This document shows positions 2,927-31,867 of a stretch of 31,932 nt of DNA, one piece after another (the stretch's first letter is position 1; each line of letters begins with the position of its first letter). The notes under the pieces are model-generated. The model worked only from the letters and a program-made list of their open reading frames with translations. It was not told the DNA's origin and searched no databases. A program made the translations under genes and the position numbers. Source of the DNA: a virus (Duplodnaviria > Caudoviricetes); the IMG/VR virus record IMGVR_UViG_3300031953_000074, positions 1 through 31,932 of that record. One strand, 5' to 3'.

Positions 2927-3394
2927 ATGAATTACTTAACTCCTAAGGAAAAACTAGAAATAGTATTGGATTTGTGTGAAAAGCACGGTATTACCGCATA
3001 CAATATTGGGGGAAATACCCCATTAAATGCCTCAGGAGTACAACGTATCTTAAAAAGAGAAGTAAGACCACAATCCAAGACGATTGATATACTTTATGAT
3101 TATGTAATTGAAAAAGAAAGGGAATCCAGACACAAAGAATCACTTAAGGTATTAGAAAATATAAACCCCGTGGAAGATTTAGAAACAGGCTACAGCAATT
3201 CAATACAAGAGATGGTTGCCCGGGAGGTTTATAAACGCCTGGAGCCACTTTTATCAGAGATCATTCAGCAGCAGCAACAAAGCAACCGTATTTTAATAAA
3301 GAATAGCATCCAGCTGGAGCGAATTAAAATAGATATAGATGATCTCAAAACTAATATTGAGGAAATGAACAAGGTTCTTTCCCCTAAAAAATAA
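2927..3394 (+). CDS. CI-like repressor (N-terminal HTH, coiled-coil C-terminus)
   Basis: GITAYNIGGNTPLNASGVQRILKREVRPQSKTI is XRE-HTH-like; divergent orientation; no S24 peptidase motif seen. Confidence 0.75.
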   Translation: MNYLTPKEKLEIVLDLCEKHGITAYNIGGNTPLNASGVQRILKREVRPQSKTIDILYDYVIEKERESRHKESLKVLENINPVEDLETGYSNSIQEMVAREVYKRLEPLLSEIIQQQQQSNRILIKNSIQLERIKIDIDDLKTNIEEMNKVLSPKK

Positions 3395-3533
3395 ATTTCG
3401 TAGAACTGGGTTTTTCAGGCATAATTTTCAATTCTTCTTCAAAATAAATCAGTAATTTTTTCTTCTCCTTCACCGAATAAAGATCTCGGTTATCCTGGTA
3501 GTTTTCAAATTCATCCAATATAGTACTATACAT
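3384..3533 (-). CDS. Possible 49-aa protein convergent with the repressor
   Basis: MYSTILDEFENYQDNRDLYSVKEKKKLLIYFEEELKIMPEKPSSTKFIF* is open in AT-rich DNA. Confidence 0.4.
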   Translation of the reverse strand: MYSTILDEFENYQDNRDLYSVKEKKKLLIYFEEELKIMPEKPSSTKFIF

Positions 3534-3734
3534 AATTCTTGCTAAGTTGATTATAAATATTGTAGATGTAGGGACGCCTAAATTAAGACAATATTAACAA
3601 GTGTCAAGCATAGCACTGTTAAATTTTGTAGTTATAACAGTTACATAATTGTAGTGTTAATTTATTTCTATGGTATTATATGGTATTTTAAATAATTATA
3701 GTACATTAGCTGAACCCAACCAACTAAATTATTT

Positions 3735-4076
3735 ATGAAAAAACTACTCCTTTTAATTTTTGGCGCGTTCTTTCTCGCCTGCTCCACTGAAGCTGTCCCT
3801 GAAGATCCTGTTATGCAATGCAACTGCAATTATGTGGTAACACGTTCAATTCTTGAAAGTACCTATTACCAGGACGGAACAGGTGAAAACCGATGGTTAG
3901 AAAAGGATAATGTGCTTACTAATAATCCAGACCCTAATCCTGATTGTTCTATGGACCGGGAAATAAAAACGGATTTTATAGCACCAGGAACTGTTTTACA
4001 AGAAGATGGAAGTAGAATAGCTACAGAGACGTGGATTTACTACACGTATGAATGTGAACAAGTGCAGGTTAATTAA
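3735..4076 (+). CDS. Lipoprotein, candidate superinfection-exclusion protein
   Basis: SPII signal MKKLLLLIFGAFFLA|C and an acidic mature part, located between repressor and integrase. Confidence 0.8.
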   Translation: MKKLLLLIFGAFFLACSTEAVPEDPVMQCNCNYVVTRSILESTYYQDGTGENRWLEKDNVLTNNPDPNPDCSMDREIKTDFIAPGTVLQEDGSRIATETWIYYTYECEQVQVN

Positions 4077-4085
4077 AATATTCTT

Positions 4086-4346
4086 ATGAATTACGAAAAA
4101 GGAAAAGGCGGGTTAATTCAAGGAAGTGAATTTAAGCCGAAAAAAAATCAAAACTCACCGCTGGAAGAATTAAAAAAAGCAATACATATCCTTGAAAATA
4201 GTCAGTTTTTTAAAAACCAAAAAGAAAAACAGGAAAAAGCAACTTTAGAATTTGCAGAAGCTACTTCAGCATATCTTAAATCAAAAGAACATCAAAAGAT
4301 TATGCAGGCTTTAAGTAAATTAGGAGGTATTAGTAAAAATAATTAA
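4086..4346 (+). CDS. AT-rich hypothetical lysogeny-region protein
   Basis: 86-aa ORF, 9 bp after the lipoprotein gene. Confidence 0.7.
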   Translation: MNYEKGKGGLIQGSEFKPKKNQNSPLEELKKAIHILENSQFFKNQKEKQEKATLEFAEATSAYLKSKEHQKIMQALSKLGGISKNN

Positions 4347-4361
4347 AGTTTAAGAAAATAT

Positions 4362-4571
4362 ATGAAAAATAAAGATATAATTGAATATTTAGAGCGTTTA
4401 ATAGAGCAGGTAAAAGAAGCGGATCACACAGATTTAAGCACTTCATTAGATATAAGAACGAATTTATTTCAAAATCCGGACCATAAGTTACCACAATTAG
4501 AAGTTAAAATTTTCACTCACGAAATAACTTTATCAATAGAAAAAAGAAAAAAAATCACTAAAACCGTTTAA
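4362..4571 (+). CDS. AT-rich hypothetical lysogeny-region protein
   Basis: 69-aa ORF convergent with, and overlapping, the integrase 3' end. Confidence 0.7.
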   Translation: MKNKDIIEYLERLIEQVKEADHTDLSTSLDIRTNLFQNPDHKLPQLEVKIFTHEITLSIEKRKKITKTV

Positions 4572-5793
4572 CTTTCATTTTCACAACAACTTTCCTGATC
4601 TTCTTTTCCTCAAAAACGCCCAAAATTTTCAATTGCGCGGCGTCCCTTTCTGCCTCTTTGAATTTGGCTTTATAGGCAGTATCAATATCGCTGCGTTCGT
4701 GTCCCATCATTTCGCGCAACATATCTTCGTGAATGCCGTGGTATTTTCCCAAGGTGGCAAAGCTGTGGCGCATCACCTTAAAGGTGAAATTTTCATTTTT
4801 GGGGTGTAACTCAATTTTAAGGAGTTTTTGAATTTTCAATAAATTTCGGCGGCCGTTGTTCATAAACGTATTATAACCCAACCTGTCCTTTCGCCAGGGA
4901 AAAACATATTCCCCAGGCCCGCCGTATTTATCAATAATTCTCTTTGCCGGTTCTGGCACCAGGAGATCAAACTCAAAAGCGATATCACTCATTTTCCCAC
5001 GTTCAAAAAACACGCGGTTTCGGGCAAACTGGCTGTTTTTTAGAAAATAAATGTCAATAAGATCTACCCCGCCAAGGTAGAATTGCAGCAATGCCAAATC
5101 AAGATCCCGGCGTTGCGCATCAGGCAAATTTGTAGTTTCCAAAATTCGGATGCTCGCCAAATCCAAATACCTGTTTTTCTTCCGCCGGTCCCGGGTGGGA
5201 ATATCCCGGCTAAAATCCTTAAAAGGCTGCAAATCCTTGGCAACCCTGGCACGAATAGCCCGGTTATAAATTGCCTTCAGGGCGCCGCCATAATGTTTAA
5301 TTGTCTTATTTCCATTTCCACGGGCCTTGCAAAAGTTCTTGAAATTTTCCAAAAGATAAGGAGTAAGCTCCACAAAATTCAGTTGCGGCTCAAATCGGGC
5401 AAGCGCATCCAGGGAATTCCGGTAAGATTGCGCATTACCCTCCTTATTCTGGTCCTGCAGCAATTTTACACAGCGATCGCCCCAGGTAAAGAAGTTGGTG
5501 CCCGCTAATTTTCGTGGAGCATCCTGCAGCATTTCAAATGCCTGGTCAAAATCTTCCAATTTCTGAAAATCCATTTTCACGGCTTTTGCACGCATATTCA
5601 GTATTTCAGGATATAAACTATCAAAATCAACGTGCGTGGACCGGGGCAATTGCAGTCCGCTATCCCAGTCGATAAGGGAAGAATGTGTTAAAATTTTTCT
5701 ACGGTGTTTTCTTTTATGGGAAATGATTAACTTTATAGGAAAGCCAGCGGCGGTTTCTCCATCCGTAACATATAATTTTACAGTTGCTTTCAT
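4558..5793 (-). CDS. int: Tyrosine integrase (Bacteroidota type: arm-binding, SAM-like and catalytic domains)
   Basis: 411 aa; FERGK, KVMRHSFAT, MMGH...DTAY; next to a tRNA 3' fragment. Confidence 0.93.
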   Translation of the reverse strand: MKATVKLYVTDGETAAGFPIKLIISHKRKHRRKILTHSSLIDWDSGLQLPRSTHVDFDSLYPEILNMRAKAVKMDFQKLEDFDQAFEMLQDAPRKLAGTNFFTWGDRCVKLLQDQNKEGNAQSYRNSLDALARFEPQLNFVELTPYLLENFKNFCKARGNGNKTIKHYGGALKAIYNRAIRARVAKDLQPFKDFSRDIPTRDRRKKNRYLDLASIRILETTNLPDAQRRDLDLALLQFYLGGVDLIDIYFLKNSQFARNRVFFERGKMSDIAFEFDLLVPEPAKRIIDKYGGPGEYVFPWRKDRLGYNTFMNNGRRNLLKIQKLLKIELHPKNENFTFKVMRHSFATLGKYHGIHEDMLREMMGHERSDIDTAYKAKFKEAERDAAQLKILGVFEEKKIRKVVVKMKVKRF

Positions 5794-9374: not shown

Positions 9375-10484
9375 TTAATAAATATCATTTAAAATTTGGT
9401 AAATCACGTCTTGCTTACTCTCTAACGCACTACCTATTAACCAATAATTCAACGACCAGCCCCTCGCATTGTTCACATTAATTCCGTTGTAATTATGCGC
9501 CGGTATATTCATAGTGGCGTTTGACATTCCGTCTTCCCCTCTTAGAGCCGTTTGCCCAAAATAAACCCCGTCAAAATGTGCTTTTTTAATACTTAGGTTT
9601 CTTGAAAGGTGTATATGTGATTTTATATTGATAGCTGGATCCCACGAAATATAGGATGAAAGAGTATCGTTTATAACAATCATAATTCGGTTTGATGAGT
9701 ACATTTGAATGCTTAAATTTCCCGCGGTTGTACCTTCTCTAATTACTGCGATGTTCCCTGTTTCAATAGGGTGGTCAGGCGATTTCCATATAATAGACGC
9801 ATCGTCCAATTTGTAATTAACGCTATCCGTTTTAAGGTTCCAATTAGATTGAAAAAAACAATCCCCCGACGCTTCGGCGGGAAAATTCATTCCTAAATTT
9901 TTAATAAAAATAGGGGGTTCTGTAATATCATAAGGAATAAGAGGAAAAGCCGTAGGGTTTACCCAGTTTAAAGTATAAAAATTAACATCCATTGGTAATT
10001 CCGGGTAATCGTTGTTAAAATAATAAAAAAGGTCAAATGAATTGAAAATCCCTTCTGTTTTAAAATTTATTATTCTTTGGTTATCCGTTGCGCGTTGGGC
10101 GATACTTGGAATTTGTTTCCCTTTTAAAATAGCTTCATTAAGCATAGCTTCGTACTCTGCTTCGTAATTATATCCTGAAAATGAATTTGCCCCTGTTGTT
10201 ACCGATATCTCATTAGAAAAAACATCTTCCCCTCCACTTGTCACAGGAACAATTTTAATTAAATAGTCCGTTAAAACATCTGTAAAAATTACAAAGTCGC
10301 CAGGTTTTAAGATATCTGAATAATACATCCCATCTAAATAAACAGCATACTTTATTATCCCTTCTAAAATAGGTGGTGTAAAGGTTAATCCAACAGCTAC
10401 GCCATAAACTTCAATCGCTGCCAAGTCTAATATTATAATTGACTCAGTTTTTCTCTGCCCTAATATGTTACTTCTAAAACTCAT
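9375..10484 (-). CDS. Putative receptor-binding or tail-fibre-associated protein
   Basis: Follows the fibre gene; FN3-like N-terminus (SNEISVTT), beta-rich C-terminus; AT-rich. Confidence 0.65.
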   Translation of the reverse strand: MSFRSNILGQRKTESIIILDLAAIEVYGVAVGLTFTPPILEGIIKYAVYLDGMYYSDILKPGDFVIFTDVLTDYLIKIVPVTSGGEDVFSNEISVTTGANSFSGYNYEAEYEAMLNEAILKGKQIPSIAQRATDNQRIINFKTEGIFNSFDLFYYFNNDYPELPMDVNFYTLNWVNPTAFPLIPYDITEPPIFIKNLGMNFPAEASGDCFFQSNWNLKTDSVNYKLDDASIIWKSPDHPIETGNIAVIREGTTAGNLSIQMYSSNRIMIVINDTLSSYISWDPAINIKSHIHLSRNLSIKKAHFDGVYFGQTALRGEDGMSNATMNIPAHNYNGINVNNARGWSLNYWLIGSALESKQDVIYQILNDIY

Positions 10485-12328
10485 TATACAGAAAATTCGC
10501 CGTAGCCAGTTAATTTTGATGTTACAGGCTCCTTAAAAAGGGTAACTGCTTTTTTTGCTAGTATTATTTGTCCGTCTTCGAATAGGATTTCGGCTGCTTG
10601 CCCTGCGATGGTTGCCTGTCCTGCTGCGCTGCAAACGAGGTTAGTTTTAAAATTCGCTAATCCTCCGGATGGATAGGTAAGGGTCACCGTCTGGGTAACG
10701 TAGAGGACTTTCCCGATATCGGTCGCGGCAAAATTCCGGGATGCCGAAACCGTCACCGGCACGTCGATGTCAATTTGGGAAATATAAAGCGTATCGAAAT
10801 ACGTTTTTAAAGTTGCCTTTATATTGGCCCAGGTAACTTTCTTGATGATGTTTGCTGCGGCACTATCCAAAATGGAAAGTAAATCAGAATCCACGGGTGT
10901 TGTTTTTGCGGCTGCGGCCACTACTTCGGTTTGATAGCTTGAACTAGCTAAATCCAAAGATTCCTGTTCGCTCAACTTCCTGTAATCTGCTTCCGTTCCC
11001 AAAGTCGTTCCCAAATATTCAAAGTCCGCCCATCCACTATCTACCGTGGAAAAGCTCGAAGCATCGGCAACGGTGTAAATCCCTTTATCTACTTGGCTAA
11101 CTTGGTCTGCCAATAATGCGGCATAGGTGGCATATCTTCCCGTAATTCCTGAACCGCCACCTGTCAAAGCATTGCTTTCCGCTTTAGAATACACATCCAA
11201 ATTAGTACGTGAAGTCGCAATGTTGTTTAAATCTGAAAGGTTGTTGGCTTTCTTCACCACTTCTTCATCATTGGCAGGGGTGATTCCCAAGGCGGCTATA
11301 ATCTTCGCAGATGTCAGCGCATCCAGTGCAAATACCAAATCTTCAATTTCATCATAAGTATAAATGACGTTTTCATCCTTCACCAGGTACAAGATATCTT
11401 CTTCCAGGACAAGTGCAGCAAGATCCGTGAAGGTTTCTACAGGGATTGTGTTGCCGGAAAGGCTTACCGCATAATCCTTGGCTGCCTGTTCTGCGGCATC
11501 TGCTTTGCTTTGTGCGCCGGCAGTGGTTTCTTTTGAGTTGGCAAGGTTTTCAAGGTCCTGAGCAGTGCCGTTGTAGGTGCCTTTGTCGAGTTTAAGTCCT
11601 ATGCTGGTGATGACGGCCGTAATTTGTGCCTGTAGTTTTCCGAAGGCGGTTAAAATAGAATCGGCTGCGGTGATGGCTCCAGCGTTCAAAAAGCTTATTC
11701 CTGTAAGTACAGTGGCCCGCACACGGTTTTCGGTGAAATATTTGTTTGTGGGACCTTCAGGAACTTCATCTGTAGTGCCGGGGCTGGCCTTGATTTCTGA
11801 ATAAGCAGTGCCGCCCCACCTGAATTGTTGCCCGGATGTAGGATTGCCAGTTGAAACATCCTGGTATATCTTGGCAGCGCCGGGAGTAACAGCCAAACCG
11901 CCAATATCATTAAAGGTAGTGGCGTCTATATAAGTTCCTTCCACAATTTCATCTACAAAACCAGGTAAATTAGCAGCGGGCACTTTAAGATTTGCATCTA
12001 ATCCCGCATATCCGTTGGCCGTTCCTTTTTCAGATTTCGCCTGGTAGTTAACAAGCTGTTCATCTGTGTAGAGATTTGCAGCGCCATCTATTGCCGCAAT
12101 GGCATCTGCGGTTGCTTTTGTGGTGGGATATTGGGTGTTGTTTGGCGCAGTGAGGTTGGTCACCTTATTGGTTTTCTTTTCGGCTGCGGTGTCTATAGCT
12201 TCCAGGGCGGCATCTATAGCATCGGCATTGTCATTAAGGCCCTGCGCGGCGGTGCGTGCCGGGGTTCCGGTTTTATCTTCAGCGGTGATGCCGCGGTAGA
12301 TTTTAAAAAGATTGCCTATATATCCCAT
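10484..12328 (-). CDS. Tail fibre protein
   Basis: Ala/Thr-rich mosaic with fibre-type motifs (EKGTANGYAGLD, TDEVPEGPTNKYFT, DSILTAFGKLQAQI, KANNLSDL). Confidence 0.8.
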   Translation of the reverse strand: MGYIGNLFKIYRGITAEDKTGTPARTAAQGLNDNADAIDAALEAIDTAAEKKTNKVTNLTAPNNTQYPTTKATADAIAAIDGAANLYTDEQLVNYQAKSEKGTANGYAGLDANLKVPAANLPGFVDEIVEGTYIDATTFNDIGGLAVTPGAAKIYQDVSTGNPTSGQQFRWGGTAYSEIKASPGTTDEVPEGPTNKYFTENRVRATVLTGISFLNAGAITAADSILTAFGKLQAQITAVITSIGLKLDKGTYNGTAQDLENLANSKETTAGAQSKADAAEQAAKDYAVSLSGNTIPVETFTDLAALVLEEDILYLVKDENVIYTYDEIEDLVFALDALTSAKIIAALGITPANDEEVVKKANNLSDLNNIATSRTNLDVYSKAESNALTGGGSGITGRYATYAALLADQVSQVDKGIYTVADASSFSTVDSGWADFEYLGTTLGTEADYRKLSEQESLDLASSSYQTEVVAAAAKTTPVDSDLLSILDSAAANIIKKVTWANIKATLKTYFDTLYISQIDIDVPVTVSASRNFAATDIGKVLYVTQTVTLTYPSGGLANFKTNLVCSAAGQATIAGQAAEILFEDGQIILAKKAVTLFKEPVTSKLTGYGEFSV

Positions 12329-22335: not shown

Positions 22336-22970
22336 TTTGAATAGCGGTTTTTGTTAACAATTAATTGAGCCTCAAAAATATCAAGTGACACTCTTTCCTT
22401 TGGATTTGAATCCTTTTCTTTATCTTTTGAATCGCCCGGGTCGGGGGTTTCTACAGCTGTACGCAATGCGTGCAACTCTTCGTTATTTCGTTTTAATGCG
22501 TCTGGATTGCTGCCTATGCTTACCACGCTCCATTCCTGAAGGTATTGGCGGGTGAAATACACCACATCTGGATCTTCGCCCTGGTCTTTTAATCCCATAC
22601 GGGCCTTAGAGACTTTTGCGTTGATGGAGGCCATTCTGAGCGTGCCATTCTTTACTTTTCGGAAAACCTTTTCGGCAAGCGGGTTGGTATCGGCATCTTC
22701 AAAGGTGACTTCACCAATAAGTTGTTCACCTTCCTGAAATACGCGGCTGGTACCAATGATGTTATCAGGGTTGCTTCCGTGCACATTGTGATTGTAGGAC
22801 ACAATAGGATTCCGGTTGTATTCGTCCAGCATCCAGCCATCCATTCTAAAAACGGTGTTGTAAGAATCAACAGCTTCTGTCGAGATCACGAACTGGGCAG
22901 TGCGTTTTTCTTCCGAAATTCCATCGGCCCGTACCTGGGCAGTCCTAATTTGTATGTTATCAGTTTTCAT
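22332..22970 (-). CDS. Prohead protease, HK97 family
   Basis: YNH, MASI, EWSVVSIGSNPDA. Confidence 0.92.
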   Translation of the reverse strand: MKTDNIQIRTAQVRADGISEEKRTAQFVISTEAVDSYNTVFRMDGWMLDEYNRNPIVSYNHNVHGSNPDNIIGTSRVFQEGEQLIGEVTFEDADTNPLAEKVFRKVKNGTLRMASINAKVSKARMGLKDQGEDPDVVYFTRQYLQEWSVVSIGSNPDALKRNNEELHALRTAVETPDPGDSKDKEKDSNPKERVSLDIFEAQLIVNKNRYSK

Positions 22971-24201
22971 CTTTGACCTGTTTTTTATCTTTGGGTTCAG
23001 CAGAAATCATTTTTTTGATTTGGCTTTCATTCAATAGATTGCTCATTTGAAGGAATTCATCTCCGCCATCTTCAGGGTTCATATCTTCCAACTCGCGGAT
23101 CTCATTTGGGGTGATGGCACGTACAAAAACAAGGTCTTTGTAAAATTGCCCACGGGCGGCAGGATCTGCCTGTAATAGTTTTTTGAAATTCTGAAAGATG
23201 TACACGCCAGATTTCCTTTCGGAAGCAGTGAAGGATTTACGCTCCAATTCCTGTTTGAATTTTTCGGCAAAAGGCATCACGGCACTTTGCACGTATTCAA
23301 TGGAAAGCTGTACAATAAAATTATAACCGCCTTCGCCTTTGATGTGCAATTTGTAGGACGGAATCTGGAACCAACGCGCAATATCTTCGATAGAGGCGGC
23401 ATAGGTTTCAATAAATTTTGATTCGGAAGGGGAAAGGACCAGGCTTTTGTATTTAAATCCTTCATCAAGAACGGCTGCACGGTGTTTATTCCCGGAGGAA
23501 AGCGCGGCGGTCCAGGCATCGGAAATCCGTTTTTTGGCATCTGGTTTTACGGCAAGCTCAGTTTCAATAACGCCCTGGGAGATTCCACGGTCTGCCAAAG
23601 AATCACTTCCAAATTTTTGAGCTGCCAGGGAAACTCCCATATTATCGGCTGCGTGGTGAATGACAGATTTCCCTGTAATCCCATCAAAGGAGAAACCGGG
23701 AACGTGAATGATTTCGGCCGCTGAATATGGTACCTGATTTTTATATTTGTAGAATAATTTTCCGTTGCTTTCCAAAACGCTCACATCGTCGTGTGCCAGG
23801 AACTGGTAGGAGATGATGTTTCCGGAATTATCACGAATGATAAGCGCATACGCATTTCCTTTCATAAGTACAGAAACTGCCATTATGAATTTGAAGGTAA
23901 ACGCGGTCATTTGTGAATTTGGCTCGCGGTACAATAGGTAATCGGCAGGGTGATCTGTAAAATGTGCCCTGGTCTTTCCGGTAGTTTTCATCACCGAATG
24001 GGGCAGCAAGGCAAAGCTATTTGCAATAGTGTTGACGGCGCAATAAAATGCGGAAACGGTCAAGGCAGAATGGGTGTTGACTTTCTTCCCAGCTTCGGTA
24101 AGTTTGAAACCAAAAAAAGGCCAGGAATTACCGTCGGTAAGCCCTGACCTCAATTGAGGGGTAACTAAATTTTGAACTGCAGCTGTGAATAAGTTACTCA
24201 T
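22960..24201 (-). CDS. Portal protein, HK97 family
   Basis: EPN..MTAFTF, GNAYA, EIIH, IARWFQIP, TPNEIRELED. Confidence 0.95.
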   Translation of the reverse strand: MSNLFTAAVQNLVTPQLRSGLTDGNSWPFFGFKLTEAGKKVNTHSALTVSAFYCAVNTIANSFALLPHSVMKTTGKTRAHFTDHPADYLLYREPNSQMTAFTFKFIMAVSVLMKGNAYALIIRDNSGNIISYQFLAHDDVSVLESNGKLFYKYKNQVPYSAAEIIHVPGFSFDGITGKSVIHHAADNMGVSLAAQKFGSDSLADRGISQGVIETELAVKPDAKKRISDAWTAALSSGNKHRAAVLDEGFKYKSLVLSPSESKFIETYAASIEDIARWFQIPSYKLHIKGEGGYNFIVQLSIEYVQSAVMPFAEKFKQELERKSFTASERKSGVYIFQNFKKLLQADPAARGQFYKDLVFVRAITPNEIRELEDMNPEDGGDEFLQMSNLLNESQIKKMISAEPKDKKQVKDEN

Positions 24202-24295: not shown

Positions 24296-24649
24296 TTAGG
24301 GTTTGTTGTAGATTTCGATTGCTTTTTGGATCGAGATATTATAGGTTTCTTCCTGGGTTAGATAACCATCAAAAGATTTTTCTTTAACCAGGTTACAACC
24401 ATCTGATCCTTCTATTATCCAAGAGAATCTTCCTTCGCCCATTAATTTCATATGATATACAAGAATATAGATTTTATTTTCTGCAAAAAATTCCAAGTAC
24501 ACACCGTACTGCATTGCTGGAGGTAGGTTGTAGAAATCTGCAATGCCCAGTATCCAGGTTCCAAGCCTGAAACTGTTCAATGGATATTTTTTTCTGAAAT
24601 AAATTTCGAAGTCGGTTTTTGCTTTTCCGGTCATAATTAAAAAGTTCAA
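24296..24649 (-). CDS. Hypothetical protein
   Basis: 117-aa ORF; the start may be at the internal MTGK. Confidence 0.7.
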   Translation of the reverse strand: MNFLIMTGKAKTDFEIYFRKKYPLNSFRLGTWILGIADFYNLPPAMQYGVYLEFFAENKIYILVYHMKLMGEGRFSWIIEGSDGCNLVKEKSFDGYLTQEETYNISIQKAIEIYNKP

Positions 24650-24743
24650 GGTTCAAGGTTTGGGGTTTTATATGCGCAATGCTTTGTTGCGTTTACCCCG
24701 TAATTAAGCGGGGATAAAGGGTATGGTTGTGTTTATATAACTA

Positions 24744-24856
24744 GTTCAAAGCAATAACCTCAACTAAACACACTTGGAAACGGCGTGTGTTTGTTCGGGG
24801 CGTGTTGCGAAACTCATTTCATTCCGTTTGCGATGCAACACTAAATTGCTTTGAAC
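24744..24856. mobile_element. ORF-less 113-bp cassette-like unit with 12-bp complementary ends
   Basis: GTTCAAAGCAAT (24744-24755) and ATTGCTTTGAAC (24845-24856); two internal stem-loops. Confidence 0.6.
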
Positions 24857-24891
24857 CCATTGAGATTATTCAATTTAAAAAGCCATTGCAG

Positions 24892-25248
24892 CTACGCTGA
24901 CTTTAGTAAATGTTTGTTTTCGTGAACATTGCCTATTATTTCAAATTGATTTAAATACTTGCAATCTTCATAGTATTTATCACCTTCATTAAAAAAGCAG
25001 AAACCACCTCTATTAAAGCCAACTTGGTAAGTATCAGGATTCCATTGTTTACCTTTTACAATATCACCTTCGTAAATATCTTTTCCATTTTTGTCTTGAA
25101 GCCCTGTAAATTGCTCAATAATAGCATCGTGCAATTCTTCTTGAAATTCTCTACTAAATAGATACCCATCTAATCTGTAAACCAATTCGTTGGGGTTTAT
25201 ATAGTATTTTAAAACATCATCCCACGCTCTAAATTTTAGTGTTCTCAT
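24892..25248 (-). CDS. YopX-family phage protein
   Basis: KFRAWD...EQFTGLQDKNGKDIYEGDIV...EIIGNVHEN. Confidence 0.92.
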   Translation of the reverse strand: MRTLKFRAWDDVLKYYINPNELVYRLDGYLFSREFQEELHDAIIEQFTGLQDKNGKDIYEGDIVKGKQWNPDTYQVGFNRGGFCFFNEGDKYYEDCKYLNQFEIIGNVHENKHLLKSA

Positions 25249-25308
25249 AATTATTTAATATTTGGTTACTGTTATTCTCAATACTTTTTTTTTCGGTTAC
25301 TTGCACTG

Positions 25309-25437
25309 AACTCAGATTATGCCTTTATTGCCTACGGCAGGGCTTATTTAAATTGTTTGTTACCTTAGGGTTCCCGAAAAGTCGGTTTGCAACCTCATTT
25401 CTACACCCACGGCAACAAAGCATAATCTCAATGGGTT
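25309..25437. repeat. attC-like site B (129 bp from AAC to GTT)
   Basis: AAC-tc-AGATTATGC-ctttattgcc...ggcaacaaa-GCATAATCT-caatgg-GTT. Confidence 0.65.
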
Positions 25438-25445
25438 GGCAACAA

Positions 25446-25634
25446 TTAAAAAGCAGACTTATTCTCTTTAGGATTATTGTTAGAGCATTCCTTATTATCA
25501 CAATACCTTTTGCCAAACAGCATTAGGAATCCACTTTTAGTCATTGTGCTTCCACACTTTTTACATAAATACCCTATCCCTTGTCTTATAACTCTACATA
25601 ATGGTGGTTTCGGGAGTTTCTTAAATTTGTGCAT
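25446..25634 (-). CDS. Small Cys-rich cassette protein
   Basis: CKKC...CDNKEC; its stop abuts TTGTTGCCAAC of site B. Confidence 0.7.
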   Translation of the reverse strand: MHKFKKLPKPPLCRVIRQGIGYLCKKCGSTMTKSGFLMLFGKRYCDNKECSNNNPKENKSAF

Positions 25635-25642
25635 AATTTGAA

Positions 25643-25921
25643 TTATTTACGAGGTTTGTTAGTTTTATAGCAAACTTGTTCCAGTTTCTCTATTGCTTTC
25701 ATAATAATATATTCTAATGATAGTAATGCCTCAATATCAAAAGCATATTGAGGGTTGCATATTTCTGTAGCTACACTTAGCTGATAAGCTAATGCTTGTA
25801 TTGGTTCGATAACCCCATCTTCAATTAAGTTTTCTGTTTCCTGAATAAAGTCAATTGTTATCTGGTGATAACGATGCATATTGTAGAAAGAATCGCTACT
25901 AAGTTCTTTTAATGATTTCAT
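25643..25921 (-). CDS. Hypothetical cassette protein
   Basis: 92-aa AT-rich ORF starting 40 bp after site C. Confidence 0.7.
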   Translation of the reverse strand: MKSLKELSSDSFYNMHRYHQITIDFIQETENLIEDGVIEPIQALAYQLSVATEICNPQYAFDIEALLSLEYIIMKAIEKLEQVCYKTNKPRK

Positions 25922-25967
25922 AATTTCTATTTTATTTAAAATTAATACTCTGAATTAAACGGCTGCC

Positions 25968-26036
25968 AACACCGCATATAAAATAACGGCTGAAATTCTC
26001 AATGCGTGGAGCCGTCATTTTTTATACGCATCCGTT
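25968..26036. repeat. attC-like site C (69 bp)
   Basis: AAC-acc-GCATATAAAATAACGGCT...AGCCGTCATTTTTTATACGC-atcc-GTT. Confidence 0.8.
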
Positions 26037-26049
26037 AGTAGCAAGACTG

Positions 26050-26250
26050 TTACCATTCTCTTAATTCAATACCTCTTACTTCTTTTCCACAACTTGGGCA
26101 GTGGTTTACCCTTAATTTAGTATATCCATTACAAGATTTTAACGTAGGCATACAATAAACTTTATCTCCATTATCATCTTGGTAACTGAACCATTCAAAG
26201 TGATGCCTCATTTTTCCAAAGAAATCACAACATTTAATATTCTGTTTCAT
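26050..26250 (-). CDS. Small zinc-ribbon cassette protein
   Basis: CC...HCPSCG; the only ORF between sites C and D. Confidence 0.75.
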   Translation of the reverse strand: MKQNIKCCDFFGKMRHHFEWFSYQDDNGDKVYCMPTLKSCNGYTKLRVNHCPSCGKEVRGIELREW

Positions 26251-26300
26251 TCTTATTGTCTTTTATAATTAATATTTTGTTTCATTCCCGTCCTGCTACT

Positions 26301-26366
26301 AACAACGCATATAAAAAACGGCTGAAATGTCAGTTTGCGTAGCCGCTTTTTATATTTCATTCCGTT
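26301..26366. repeat. attC-like site D (66 bp), paralogue of site C
   Basis: AAC-aac-GCATATAAAAAACGGCT...AGCCGCTTTTTATAT-ttcattcc-GTT. Confidence 0.8.
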
Positions 26367-26375
26367 AGGCATCAA

Positions 26376-26621
26376 TTAAAAGAACTGTAATTGCTCACCA
26401 ATTGCAGGTTTAAAACTCTTAACCTGGCTAAAAGGAATTCCATAACCTCCATAATCTCCATTGTTAATTTTTACAATGCATTTTGGTTCACGAATTCCAC
26501 AGGGATCTACATCAACTCTTAATATCTGCGATTCTACTTCTTTCATTTCCATTCTTTCCCCAATCCAAATTTCAATATCAAAAGTTATTAATTGTCCTGG
26601 ATTATAATTACACATCTTCAA
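26376..26621 (-). CDS. Small beta-rich hypothetical protein
   Basis: 81-aa ORF whose stop is followed by TTGATGCCTAAC of site D. Confidence 0.7.
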   Translation of the reverse strand: MKMCNYNPGQLITFDIEIWIGERMEMKEVESQILRVDVDPCGIREPKCIVKINNGDYGGYGIPFSQVKSFKPAIGEQLQFF

Positions 26622-26990: not shown

Positions 26991-27059
26991 CAAATATACA
27001 AAGTTTTCTTTGTTAAACAAATAAAACTTTGTTTAAATATTAGTTTTATTTTATATTTG
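26991..27059. promoter_or_regulatory. Divergent promoters with a palindromic operator
   Basis: TATATTTG on - (26991-26998) and on + (27052-27059); AAAGTTTTCTTTGTT-A-AACAAATAAAACTTT (27000-27030, 14/15 symmetric). Confidence 0.75.
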
Positions 27060-27091
27060 TTTATATTCCTTTGTTTTTGTAGTTTAGCCTT

Positions 27092-27280
27092 ATGGAACGA
27101 AATGACACCCGCCTGGATATATTAATGGCCGAAAAAGGCATTAGGACCGATAAAGAACTGGCAGCGGCTTTAGGGTTTAGTCAGCAGCAATTATCTTTCA
27201 GGTTAAAGAAGATCTCTATAGCTACTTTAGAAACCTTTGCGGGGTTTTTTGAGACGAGTGTTAAGGACTTACTAAAGTGA
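27092..27280 (+). CDS. Small XRE/Cro-type HTH regulator
   Basis: LMAEKGI..KELAAALGFSQQQLS...TLETFAGFF...DLL; the only credible + strand gene in the late region. Confidence 0.88.
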   Translation: MERNDTRLDILMAEKGIRTDKELAAALGFSQQQLSFRLKKISIATLETFAGFFETSVKDLLK

Positions 27281-28057: not shown

Positions 28058-28111
28058 AATTGGGTTGGGTTAGAGAGACGCCCAAATTGGGCGTCTGTGC
28101 TATTTTATATT

Positions 28112-28555
28112 TTATATTGTTGAAGGCTGATTCATCCAGTTTTCAAATTGAGTCATAAATACGGTTTTGGTCATTTGGGCCATCGCATCTGCTACGTTTT
28201 TAAAGCCTTTTTCATTGGCAAATCCCATCATTGAGGCGTGTCTGTCTCTTTCGGTTTGGAGGCGGCGCTTTTCTTTTTTTTCCCTTTCGGAATCTGAAGC
28301 TGCATATGATCCAGATGAGACGCCCAAGTTGGGCGTCTGTACCGGGCCTTCGGGCAGGCCGAATAATTGCGGGGTTTGTTCAGATTTTGCGAGTTTGTAG
28401 GCAGCAAGCTGCAGTTTTCCGTTGTTGATGATGGAGTTTGAAAGTTGTACGATGGCATATACACGTTTATCTTCAAATTTTGTTTTTTTAATCACTCCGT
28501 CCAGGGTTTCAAAAAGGAGTTTGTTCAATTTGTTTAAATCGTTTGAATCGTTCAT
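28112..28555 (-). CDS. Hypothetical phage protein containing an in-frame REP-like element
   Basis: Coupled to the HNH-like gene; VQTPNLGVS is encoded by the palindrome at 28317-28342. Confidence 0.8.
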   Translation of the reverse strand: MNDSNDLNKLNKLLFETLDGVIKKTKFEDKRVYAIVQLSNSIINNGKLQLAAYKLAKSEQTPQLFGLPEGPVQTPNLGVSSGSYAASDSEREKKEKRRLQTERDRHASMMGFANEKGFKNVADAMAQMTKTVFMTQFENWMNQPSTI

Positions 28556-29262
28556 AATAATTTTTGTATTTTATTGGTTAATTTAATTGCTGTTTTTAAT
28601 TCTTTAGGAAGGCAATGAAATGCTTCCGCGTTTATTTGTGCATTTTCTGCCCTGGTGATGAGCTCCAGATCTTCAAGAGAATCGGGAATGACTTTATCGT
28701 TTAAAATTTTCACCACCATCCCGGGCGCTATTCTTCCTTTTTCTTTGATCCAAAACCATCTGGCATAGGGCGTGAATCCTTTTTTAATTTTAATGAAGGC
28801 GCGTTGCCCGCCGTTGCTATGCCATACCTTTATGCTACCTATTGGAGTGGTCCTGCCTTTCCATCGTTTTACGGCACATTCGGCAAAATAACCGTTATCT
28901 ACATTTCGCTGGTGAATGTTTTTTATTTGGGTTGGCGTGCGTTTTAAGAACAGGTAACGGCGTTTTTTATTGATATGTTTTTTGCTCCAACCTTTGTTTT
29001 TGTGCCATTTTCCGGTGAATATTATTGCCAGTTCTGTATCTCCAATGGTTTTGTAATTTGCTTTCAGAAATTGGGTTTGCTCTTTTGTCCAGTATTCCGG
29101 AAGCATTCGTTTTAATCCGAAGTCATAACAGCGGCGGCGGGTGATGGTGAGTTTTAAATTTAGCGCATCTGCCAACTGCTGATTTGTAAGGGAGAAGAAA
29201 TTTTGTTTCAGAAAATAATCTTCTTCCGGGGTCCAGTGGTGTTTGTTGTCTCCCTGTGGCAT
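28552..29262 (-). CDS. Protein with WT.E..FL HTH-like repeats and a degenerate HNH-like C-terminus
   Basis: WTPEEDYFLK and WTKEQTQFLK repeats; G.I.PGMVV...EDLELITRAEN. Confidence 0.7.
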   Translation of the reverse strand: MPQGDNKHHWTPEEDYFLKQNFFSLTNQQLADALNLKLTITRRRCYDFGLKRMLPEYWTKEQTQFLKANYKTIGDTELAIIFTGKWHKNKGWSKKHINKKRRYLFLKRTPTQIKNIHQRNVDNGYFAECAVKRWKGRTTPIGSIKVWHSNGGQRAFIKIKKGFTPYARWFWIKEKGRIAPGMVVKILNDKVIPDSLEDLELITRAENAQINAEAFHCLPKELKTAIKLTNKIQKLL

Positions 29263-29576: not shown

Positions 29577-29616
29577 TGGTGGTTGGTTTGAGACGCCCTA
29601 ATAGGGCTTCTGTGCA

Positions 29617-31389
29617 TTAAATATAAATTTCCTCGTTATCATTGTTGTATTTTGATTCGTTGGTATCTTCCTGGGTCATTGTACCCGCTAATCCCATTAT
29701 GGTTCCTATGATTGGATCTATCCTTTTGGTAGCTATTTTTTTTGAATACCGGATATCTTCATTAGGGTTCATTTCTGCCACGCAGCCGGATAGGGACCAC
29801 TTTAAAATGGGGTGCCCACCGGTGCGAAGCTTTCCTAAAAAAGCAAGGCGTTCAAACTCTTTTGTAGGAGCAGAATAATACAGGATTGTTTGCGCAAAAG
29901 GGAACATTTTAAACCCATCTGTAGTCAGGTTTTGAACCAGTTGGGTGGCATTGTGCCTGTCATAATTAATCCATTTTATATCAAGTACTTCATAAAAAGC
30001 TTTGACATATTTTTCTAAAGTATCATAATCTATCTGGTCTCCAGGAGTGGCAATAAGGGCGGTGACTTTTTTAAAGAAGGGGTCATTTTCCAGATCGGTG
30101 CCGGTGAAGTCGATGTAATTAGAAAGCAGCATATCTTTCCAAAATTTGTATGGTACTTTATCTTCCTTGCTGCGTTTTATGATATTATCCAGCGGGCAAA
30201 ATATCAATGGCAACACATCGCGAAATCCGTTTTCGTCTGGTTCGCTCACTGCCACCGCCGCGGTTAAATCTATATTAGTGGAAAGGTCCAAACCTATCAC
30301 AGCGCCGCCACGAAGGAAGTTTTTAAGCTGTATTTTTCCGTTGTTTTTGTTCCAAACAGCTTCCGGAATTCTAATTTCAGGAGCATCTACCCACATATTG
30401 AGGTGCTTTGTCTTGAAATTGGAAGCTTTACTGGGTTGGTTAACAGCCTTTAAATATTCGTCGCGAATCCTATCTATAGAAAGTCCCTGTCCCAATAACG
30501 GATTTGCCTTTATCCAGGTAGATTCATCCTCCCAATCATCATCTTCATCCAGATCGTGGATCATAATCATAAGGGAATCATCTTCTTTTATTTCATCCAG
30601 GATCTCTTTGCAGACATCTTCGTAATTTTTACACACTCCATGGATAAAAACCCCTGCGGTCGTGATATGCCAGGTAATGGGTTGGCTCCGGTTTACTGAA
30701 GAAGATTCCAGGTTTTCTTTTACGCTATCATCCTTATGCGCGTGGTATTCATCGATTATAGCAATATGCGAATTAATTCCATCCTGTGTTTTTGAATCAC
30801 CTCCAAGCGGCATAAGTACTGATCCTGTTTTATCACACCAAATTTCCTTTTGCTTGCAGCGGAATTTCAATACATTGCGCATCAAAGGATTTGCATGGTG
30901 ACTGTCGATAAAACTCTTGGCTTGTTTCCAACAAATCTTTGCCTGCTCTTCTTTTGTGGCCCCTACATAAACTTCGGCCTCAGATTCATTGTCAAAACTC
31001 ATTGCCAGGCAAGCCACCCCAGCCATTTCAGCGGACTTTCCGTTTTTCTTCGCACGTTTATCGTACACGGTTTTGATTCGTCGAAGGTTATTAGATTTCT
31101 TTTTCCACCCAAAGACATTGTACATTGTGAATTGCTGAAAAGGAGCCAGCATAAAAGGTTGCCCAGCCATAGATCCTTTGGTGTGGTTTAACAATGTAGG
31201 GAAGAAGTTTATGGATTGAGATCCTGTTTCGTGGTCCAGATAGAATCCTTTTTCATCGGCTTCATCGATCCATTTAAAGAAACGCTCACAAGCCTGCTGA
31301 ATTCGGCGGCCCGTGATTATTTTCCCTTCCAGTACATCGTTGGCGTATCGGAAAGGGATTGAGTTTTGCATTTCTTTAGTGATTTTCAT
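29617..31389 (-). CDS. terL: Terminase large subunit
   Basis: Walker A KKNGKS, Walker B IIDEYH, ITTAG, GLDLS, RIDP. Confidence 0.96.
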   Translation of the reverse strand: MKITKEMQNSIPFRYANDVLEGKIITGRRIQQACERFFKWIDEADEKGFYLDHETGSQSINFFPTLLNHTKGSMAGQPFMLAPFQQFTMYNVFGWKKKSNNLRRIKTVYDKRAKKNGKSAEMAGVACLAMSFDNESEAEVYVGATKEEQAKICWKQAKSFIDSHHANPLMRNVLKFRCKQKEIWCDKTGSVLMPLGGDSKTQDGINSHIAIIDEYHAHKDDSVKENLESSSVNRSQPITWHITTAGVFIHGVCKNYEDVCKEILDEIKEDDSLMIMIHDLDEDDDWEDESTWIKANPLLGQGLSIDRIRDEYLKAVNQPSKASNFKTKHLNMWVDAPEIRIPEAVWNKNNGKIQLKNFLRGGAVIGLDLSTNIDLTAAVAVSEPDENGFRDVLPLIFCPLDNIIKRSKEDKVPYKFWKDMLLSNYIDFTGTDLENDPFFKKVTALIATPGDQIDYDTLEKYVKAFYEVLDIKWINYDRHNATQLVQNLTTDGFKMFPFAQTILYYSAPTKEFERLAFLGKLRTGGHPILKWSLSGCVAEMNPNEDIRYSKKIATKRIDPIIGTIMGLAGTMTQEDTNESKYNNDNEEIYI

Positions 31390-31390
31390 T

Positions 31391-31867
31391 TTATGAAGAT
31401 TGCTTTAAAGCTTGTTGAAGTTGTTCGAAAGCGTCGAGTTGGTTGTCGGGTTGTTTTTCTTCTTTCAGTTTTTTGCGATCCAGGAAGGAGAATCCAAAGT
31501 GTTTTGACAGTTCGTCAATTTCCTTCAACATTTTTTCACGAATGGTAATGTGCGCACTTACGTTAGTGGTTCCGTTTTTAAAGGTTTGGATAAGTCCGCC
31601 TTCATAACCAAATTTTTGAATTTTATTTTCTGCCTGGATATAATAATCTACAGACCGGGCAAGGCGGTGCAGATGAATAAGATCTGGACGCATTAATTTT
31701 TTAGTTGCTACCAACTGATCCCCAAAATAAGAATACCAGTAGTTTTGATCTTTAGTCAGATTAAAACGGGAGCTAGACACTGGCAACTTCGAAAGAGGCG
31801 TGTAGAGATCTGTAGCATTTGTTTTGCCTTCCCCTTTCATTACAATCATTTTACCTTTGTTTTCCAT
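31391..31867 (-). CDS. terS: Terminase small subunit (P27 family)
   Basis: Directly upstream of terL; LSKHFGFS..DR motif. Confidence 0.85.
   Translation of the reverse strand: MENKGKMIVMKGEGKTNATDLYTPLSKLPVSSSRFNLTKDQNYWYSYFGDQLVATKKLMRPDLIHLHRLARSVDYYIQAENKIQKFGYEGGLIQTFKNGTTNVSAHITIREKMLKEIDELSKHFGFSFLDRKKLKEEKQPDNQLDAFEQLQQALKQSS

Follow-up and report, generated by a model that had tools for sequence, protein, structure and literature searches.

The window, by which we mean the whole 31,932-nucleotide stretch of DNA that was analyzed and that is also the whole virus record, is from a temperate tailed phage: annotation gave genes for an integrase, tail, capsid, portal, and terminases in its 31.9 kb. 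The sequencing runs containing window DNA are labelled as brine metagenome. Because the portal is 63% identical to that of a prophage in Mesonia aquimarina (L004 = L095), the host is likely, as judged from this relative, to be a flavobacterium. Between terL and the portal gene is a stretch of small genes, and here lies an array of short units with AAC...GTT hairpins. The features are listed by window coordinates.

22960-24201, portal gene
24689-24746, plus strand, host-type (attI-like) docking site, with the putative crossover at G|TT, 24744/24745
24744-24901, plus strand, constant leader of 158 bases, containing a hairpin element (24744-24856)
24745-25435, plus strand, cassette 1: constant leader, YopX insert, and constant tail with site B
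24845-24869, plus strand, 25 bases perfectly complementary to the predicted circle junction, where tail end meets leader start; read directly
24892-25248, minus strand (antisense), YopX-family gene of 118 aa (Pfam PF09643, E = 9e-17)
25291-25437, plus strand, constant tail, containing site B
25309-25437, attC-like site B, 129 bp, AAC...GTT cores
25436-26034, plus strand, cassette 2: two antisense ORFs and site C; chain pairing 8/9
25446-25634, antisense, 62-aa ORF with CxxC pairs
25643-25921, antisense, 92-aa ORF
25968-26036, attC-like site C, 69 bp, AAC...GTT cores
26035-26364, plus strand, cassette 3: 330 bases with site D; chain pairing 10/10
26050-26250, antisense, 66-aa ORF, in a 23-member protein cluster whose last residues vary
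26301-26366, attC-like site D, 66 bp, AAC...GTT cores
26365-26621, plus strand, terminal unit, lacking both its own site and a partner AAC; 81-aa ORF on the minus strand (26376-26621)
26991-27021, minus strand, exact match to a Bacteroidota-type promoter, pointing into the array
27028-27059, plus strand, divergent exact promoter match, before an HTH gene (27092-27280)
29617-31867, terminase genes

A preliminary description of this DNA had reported the three AAC...GTT hairpins and claimed that C and D are paralogues and that the bases after each GTT pair with the AAC flank at the other end of the intervening unit. We reproduced all of this: every core and site length was as claimed, the flanks pair at 26034/26303 (10/10), 25435/25970 (8/9), and 24744/24856 (12/12), and C and D share 57 identities over 62 aligned columns, plus 11 gap positions. 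That the same bases do not pair with the flank of their own site was a slight overstatement, since 2, 4, and 2 of 7 do so in B, C, and D. Canonical attC sites have RYYYAAC and GTTRRRY cores and even 5-base spacers. The fit to these cores is partial, as had been said, with 2 to 4 of the 4 variable letters of a core matching, and, unlike those of canonical attC, the spacers are uneven (left/right, 2/6, 2/5, and 4/7; that is, 2 to 4 bases on the left and 5 to 7 on the right).

Isolated 9/10 GTT..AAC pairs are frequent by chance; a generic pair detector, which was too noisy, found 31 in the window, and a strict arm detector missed most of the sites. When paired arms were also required, chains of at least 2 units began at only 4 of 736 GTT starts on the plus strand, all terminating at site D, and at 0 of 421 on the minus strand; this detector was designed for one polarity and accepted one chance start, at 24575. 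The three sites fold better as DNA on the minus strand (z = -1.6, -1.55, and -2.64 for B, C, and D) than on the plus strand (z = -0.8, -0.72, and -1.67), values that are modest by energy alone. The element at 24744-24856 has a strong fold (z = -5.2).

The hairpins might instead be terminators or RNA-processing stems, with the genes exchanged by homologous or microhomology recombination in shared intergenic repeats. A terminator scan (GC stem plus T run), however, gave 2 sites in the window versus 1.7 expected, none of them at C or D and none on the minus strand. An Rfam search gave nothing matching in the window, and the 17 matches of a 16-base pattern in viral contigs were all due to chance. 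Flavo-1 RNA (RF01705) is likewise a repeated hairpin in the intergenic DNA of Flavobacteriaceae, but it is a different sequence family: neither the window nor 29 array loci gave a match to it, and true Flavo-1 sequences are unlike these sites.

The polarity of the array was read from its left end. A docking-site matrix trained on 9 array heads, all outside the window, scored the window head at 31.4 bits, rank 1, with the next best of 1155 GTTs at -2.2; there is no left arm upstream of 24744. As a phage-type docking site the window head was rejected, because it fit the phage-type head matrix poorly (rank 93 of 736). Searches for the docking-site pattern gave 0 matches in viral contigs and 0 in the 401 genomes of the family searched. 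Because a host-type docking site heads the array, cassette polarity is that of the plus strand, and the cassette genes are antisense. Classical cassettes have the opposite polarity, a point on which the preliminary description had to be corrected: here each site goes with the unit to its left on the plus strand and precedes the start codon of the gene. All 4 cassette ORFs in the window are antisense; sense genes each followed by a site after the stop codon, as in classical integrons, were not found.

The start of cassette 1 pairs with the B flank at 9 of 11 positions, and the constant leader supplies the final three codons and the stop of the YopX gene. The 24744/24856 pair, which had been taken for a separate unit, is instead the start of this leader; since a family of such cassettes was seen (below), the 12/12 pair belongs to the constant leader, YopX being one of many inserts. 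Cassette 2 was also found, in one contig of run X6, behind a similar constant leader and tail (together, the wrapper) carrying another insert. Its proteins have no Pfam or PHROG match, and a protein search gave no relative of the 92-aa protein. For cassette 3, D-like site bodies follow other genes in contigs L064 and L072. Homologues of its 66-aa gene (35 to 73% over the matched parts) lay outside cassettes: of 12 cases checked, one of them a homologue of the 62-aa gene, none was in a cassette.

Related phages showed that the content of the array changes. L001, whose portal is 92% identical to that of the window and whose flanks are 83 to 89% identical in DNA, fills this interval with different genes, which are likewise delimited by sites of this type. 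The body of site C is all that it has in common with the window array, and the similarity stops at 26037; its three inner units pair at 6, 7, and 7 of 7 positions and its first unit at 4 of 7. In 3 of the 4 runs compared, contigs likewise part from the window sequence directly after 26037; runs X8 to X13, whose shares were small, were left out. In phage contig L072, B is followed by another cassette (83 aa), then by a D-like site and the terminal gene of the window array; over 244 bases behind that D-like site, the sequence is 77% identical to the window's terminal unit. Aligning related phages had been proposed as a check, and in L001, L072, and the run contigs units were indeed gained or lost at the G|TT cores. 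Units also move whole between array positions, as in integrons: one 537-base wrapper cassette was found at three positions, with differing left and right neighbours, and the arrays of L001 and L072 differ. Neither circles nor exact-excision joints were among the run joints listed, which came from contigs only. In blastn searches against cultured phages, the only matches were to pieces of YopX, plus one short match to Flavobacterium phage 11b.

We also noted that in another phage (L071, 3832-3889, and L072) the tail-gene region holds counterparts of the docking site, the wrapper, and the terminal gene. Because these parts occur together elsewhere, the whole array platform seems to travel between phages.

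As had been stated, the window contains no IntI-like gene. The integrase of the prophage (4558-5793) was rejected as the array enzyme; it is of another type (Phage_int_SAM_5) and 20 kb distant. The preliminary description had suggested noting recombinases next to similar sites, and recombinase-headed arrays of the same build do occur in both phages and host chromosomes. In L004, a 266-aa tyrosine recombinase is at the portal end of the same terL-portal interval. In host contig L094, the docking-site family overlaps the 3' end of a related, codirectional 392-aa tyrosine recombinase, so that in this head family, as in integrons, an attI-like site adjoins the recombinase at the head of the array; in the window the recombinase is absent. 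The 266-aa enzyme has a Phage_int_SAM_4 domain and is collinear with XerA but skips residues 217-266 of VchIntIA, the IntI insertion. That insertion in the catalytic domain is essential in IntI, according to the available part of PMC8138268; here the window encodes no such enzyme, and the 266-aa recombinase lacks the insertion. Both candidate recombinases match the IntI model TIGR02249 in two separate stretches, and the array-heading recombinases scored 129 bits (266 aa, L004) and 206 bits, below the cut-off of 265.

Among viral loci with homologues of the 266-aa enzyme, 8 of 17 head chains of 2 to 4 units, upstream and divergent, in which 21 ORFs are antisense and 1 is sense. The 80 genome loci with homologues include 6 with downstream codirectional chains of 2 to 8 units (ORFs sense by 19 to 4), 3 with upstream chains, and 63 with none, many of these contigs ending just downstream. 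Two cultured phages, Leef_1 and Freya_10, carry the recombinase with chains of 3 and 2 units.

Several irregularities were seen at these loci. On the reverse strand of L004, the first unit after the docking site (10180-10640) consists of a hairpin of some 100 bases with no ORF and, behind it, a gene without a second AAC arm, which may be another long-leader cassette or may reflect decay; at 11010-11019 there is a collapsed 10-base site, and both adjoining units obey the chain rule. Ten Freya records vary in length upstream of the recombinase, from 77 to 4174 bases (L200, Polaribacter phage Freya_10, 1-4147), which may reflect assembly ends or array variation. L037 has matches to a tRNA and a permuted tmRNA (11805-12102) near a recombinase-headed array.

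The resemblance to integrons is close. Integrons and CALINs have, as here, a docking site, a 5' core that pairs with the cassette's own 3' core, and a crossover at G|TT. They also share folded sites of 60 to 130 bases, a tyrosine recombinase with Phage_int_SAM_4, and, probably, newest cassettes next to the docking site. The differences are that the recombinase here lacks the IntI insertion, the spacers are uneven, the phage genes are antisense with the site before the start codon, the host recombinase is codirectional with its array, the array is likely read from the far end, and there is a constant leader of 158 bases. The IntegronFinder 2.0 survey, in the part of the paper available (PMC9024848), reports few complete integrons in Bacteroidetes.

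The array could also be a CALIN with canonical attC sites moved by an ordinary IntI, its genes being sense on the minus strand. The crossover point, the chain rule, the site lengths, and the one-strand folding bias all agree with integrons. In addition, one site of the CALIN called in Polaribacter phage P12002L by Qi et al. 2023 (PMC9892861, as far as its available part goes) has the present build: attC1 has spacers of 3 bases on the left and 6 on the right, the chain rule holds, and the genes are antisense. Those authors read it as a classical site of opposite polarity, and in that part of the paper it is the only one of six sites without a verified IntI1 junction. In the window the polarity is reversed, B moving with the left unit on the plus strand and the docking site being at the left end; and the array-heading recombinases fall below the IntI cut-off, the 266-aa one without the insertion. 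We consider this reading very unlikely. The same part of PMC9892861 describes no Bacteroidota recombinase, docking site, or wrapper for P12002L. In that phage (L203) the sequence tested as attC2 occurs twice (29170-29235 and 37196-37261), each time followed by a cassette start, and attC2 may not be an attC but a docking site.

The stretch is a genuine integron-like array without being a classical integron. Our main reading, to which we assign a probability of about 0.85, is that three cassettes lie behind a host-type docking site and that a Bacteroidota tyrosine recombinase acting in trans likely moves them at G|TT. As far as sequence comparison can establish them, the unit boundaries, the changing unit content, the polarity, and the existence of recombinase-headed arrays elsewhere are firm. 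The core of the preliminary description, a cassette array with G|TT crossovers served in trans, thus holds through the turnover in related phages, with changes to the 24744/24856 unit, the polarity, and the candidate enzyme. The enzyme, which had been proposed to be a host or unrecognised tyrosine recombinase, is best sought in a related recombinase without the IntI insertion. Because the docking site of the phage is of the host type, we infer that the phage likely relies on a host enzyme of the 392-aa type. This recombinase would insert and excise cassettes at G|TT and is predicted, by analogy with integrons, to act on folded single-stranded sites. From integron biology, the cassettes would pass through circular intermediates and insert at the docking site at the array head. 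We did not find a description of this Bacteroidota system as such in the open-access literature. It now has named parts: the docking site, the sites, two recombinases, and the cultured phages Leef_1 and Freya_10.

Five run joints swap YopX at points inside cassette 1, away from GTT. Because YopX is exchanged at inner points, a second process is needed besides the G|TT crossover. These joints at first seemed to go against the model but are explained by the wrapper family found in a metagenome scan, and sequence comparison places cassette 1 in this family, in which a constant leader and tail surround 19 inserts. L061, which is the record of the window itself, was removed, as were the chance matches L063 and L074, leaving 32 contigs plus the window, with 23 distinct full copies of the wrapper (about 300 flanking bases) around 19 different inserts, four repeat inserts being left out. 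The inserts fall into 19 groups and are 208 to 988 bases long; the leader is 158 bases in each unit and the tail 141 to 144. Mean column conservation is 0.98 in 26 leaders, falling to 0.61 at 24904-24915 and 0.45 further on, and is 0.57 in the upstream flank; it is 0.96 in 25 tails and 0.59 in the right flank. At 24744-24758, 24854-24875, and 25416-25437 the conservation was partly set by the search motifs. Where there was room for both, leader and tail occurred together (23 of 24 leaders, 21 of 21 tails).

The outer boundaries of the wrapper are exactly G|TT in the whole flank set of 24 left and 27 right flanks. All 27 right neighbours are distinct and begin with GTT, none of the 27 right flanks shows insertion in reversed orientation, and site B travels with the left unit on the plus strand in all copies. 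Most copies are in host chromosomal arrays, and the neighbours are mostly host-type genes; 11 of the 27 right neighbours could be recognised as ordinary cassettes in full, of which 10 are sense and 1 is antisense, and most of their ORFs lie 10 to 40 bases from the cassette ends. Of 27 leaders, 12 are directly behind a docking site. Phage and host arrays thus use one site system and one cassette family. In 18 of 23 units an antisense ORF begins within the tail, 34 to 52 bases in, and in 8 of 23 the leader provides the stop codon of the ORF.

The wrapper copies all came from five metagenome assemblies, which may represent one habitat; among the 401 genomes of the family searched, the leader was found in none and the tail in only 1, as a weak 36-base match. 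By these searches the wrapper family looks local. In L057 (3890-5755) a transposase-like element splits a wrapper cassette and is followed by a second partial leader, and in L056 (1012-1030) the sequence after the wrapper opens with the first 11 bases of the leader and continues into ordinary chromosomal genes.

These data also bear on exchange by repeat recombination between hairpins that are mere RNA stems. The swapping of YopX between constant flanks favours that explanation, and the wrappers are fine mosaics: the 23 are all distinct (mean identity 0.955), and all four allele combinations occur within 15 bases for 13 of the 25 site pairs in the tail and 3 of the 8 in the leader. These mosaics are unlikely to come from assembly chimeras because the site pairs are so close (≤15 bases); the pairing of flanks with inserts could suffer from assembly across 150-base repeats, whereas single junctions are not affected. 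Leader and tail could also pair across the gene on the transcribed strand. Recombination in repeats does not, however, account for the exact outer boundaries, for end pairing that is specific to each unit, or for the recombinase and docking site at array heads, and together with the terminator scan these make the explanation very unlikely as an account of the array. As the route by which inserts enter the wrapper, recombination among cassettes in their shared AT-rich ends is the main alternative.

Another possibility, which concerns the wrapper only, is that the inserts are nested cassettes moved at C|TT by a second site-specific system. The left inner boundary is sharp, with TT directly after the leader end in 23 of 23 units, and the small hairpin beside it may resemble the substrates of HUH nucleases. 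But when the two inner ends of each insert were compared with shuffled ends, they showed no excess of pairing (19 inserts; P ~ 0.9 at 15, 25, and 40 bases), and no copy of the wrapper is empty, the shortest insert being 208 bases. We regard a second such system as unlikely and, among the routes of insert entry, the least likely. Source copies of the inserts outside the wrapper were not found among the loci compared, and none close was found in viral contigs.

The leader holds a complement of sequence that its own cassette would form on excision. The junction sequence complementary to 24845-24869 is contiguous only across the predicted cassette circle, and 24871-24889 is complementary to the inner part of B. 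The junction region of the computed circle folds at -67.9 kcal/mol (z = -8.8) versus z = -1.0 and -2.8 for the native linear neighbours, and its right arm pairs with the 24845-24869 copy with a probability of 0.98. In the computed circle the leader copy outcompetes the usual attC-like fold of B, though such cassettes clearly integrate. Copying from tail to leader in each cassette was not supported, as the leader does not follow the variable tail base at 25346. Within 24744-24856, 11 of 80 paired columns are variable versus 10 of 33 unpaired columns (P = 0.06), with no compensatory pair.

For insert entry we favour reuse of an existing wrapper, which would donate both ends to a new gene. More specifically, and tentatively, since we give it somewhat less than an even chance, the wrapper may be a cassette-making vehicle in a recent burst, with a dedicated capture route that reuses both ends at fixed points. 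Only after excision, in the circle, would the ends then adjoin each other and fold as a single long rod. The wrapper would give a new ORF a leader, often a stop codon, and a self-splint that holds the cassette ends together, and it would carry phage-type genes into host chromosomal arrays. Sedentary chromosomal integrons, such as those with Vibrio repeats, likewise have many unrelated genes with one near-identical site, and this homogeneity of attC points to cassettes forming inside a single host lineage (PMC8618304). Unlike in Vibrio-type integrons, both ends are constant here, with 300 bases in total, and the leader is complementary to the circle junction. How cassettes form is among the outstanding questions listed in a 2021 review (PMC8618304). 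The wrapper family is relevant to this and may show how new cassettes arise: 19 unrelated inserts lie within nearly identical ends, so that on one side the joining points are known to the base, and they are testable. A capture route through the wrapper, if true, would be the first directly testable model for the making of new gene cassettes.

The array had been placed inside a packaging operon. It does lie between terL and the portal gene, but its genes likely have their own promoter, at 26991-27021, and therefore the array probably does not belong solely to the packaging transcript. The -7 consensus that we used agrees with that given in the available part of PMC9723704. Because the number of exact promoter matches is not above chance (2 in the window versus a chance mean of 2.6), we can only infer that the array is transcribed from its far end. 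Both matches are also present in L001. The gene at 27092-27280 matches HTH_26 (Pfam); the divergent promoter pair and this 62-aa Cro-like HTH gene (26991-27280) are kept in L001 and may regulate the array genes.

Two further features lie outside the array. A palindrome of 21 to 24 bases occurs in three copies among the small genes after terL (28075-28098, 28317-28340, and 29590-29613), and L001 has similar copies. Between the left arm and integrase, 2927-4346 holds low-GC genes on the plus strand with one weak tail-fibre match, a possible accessory island.
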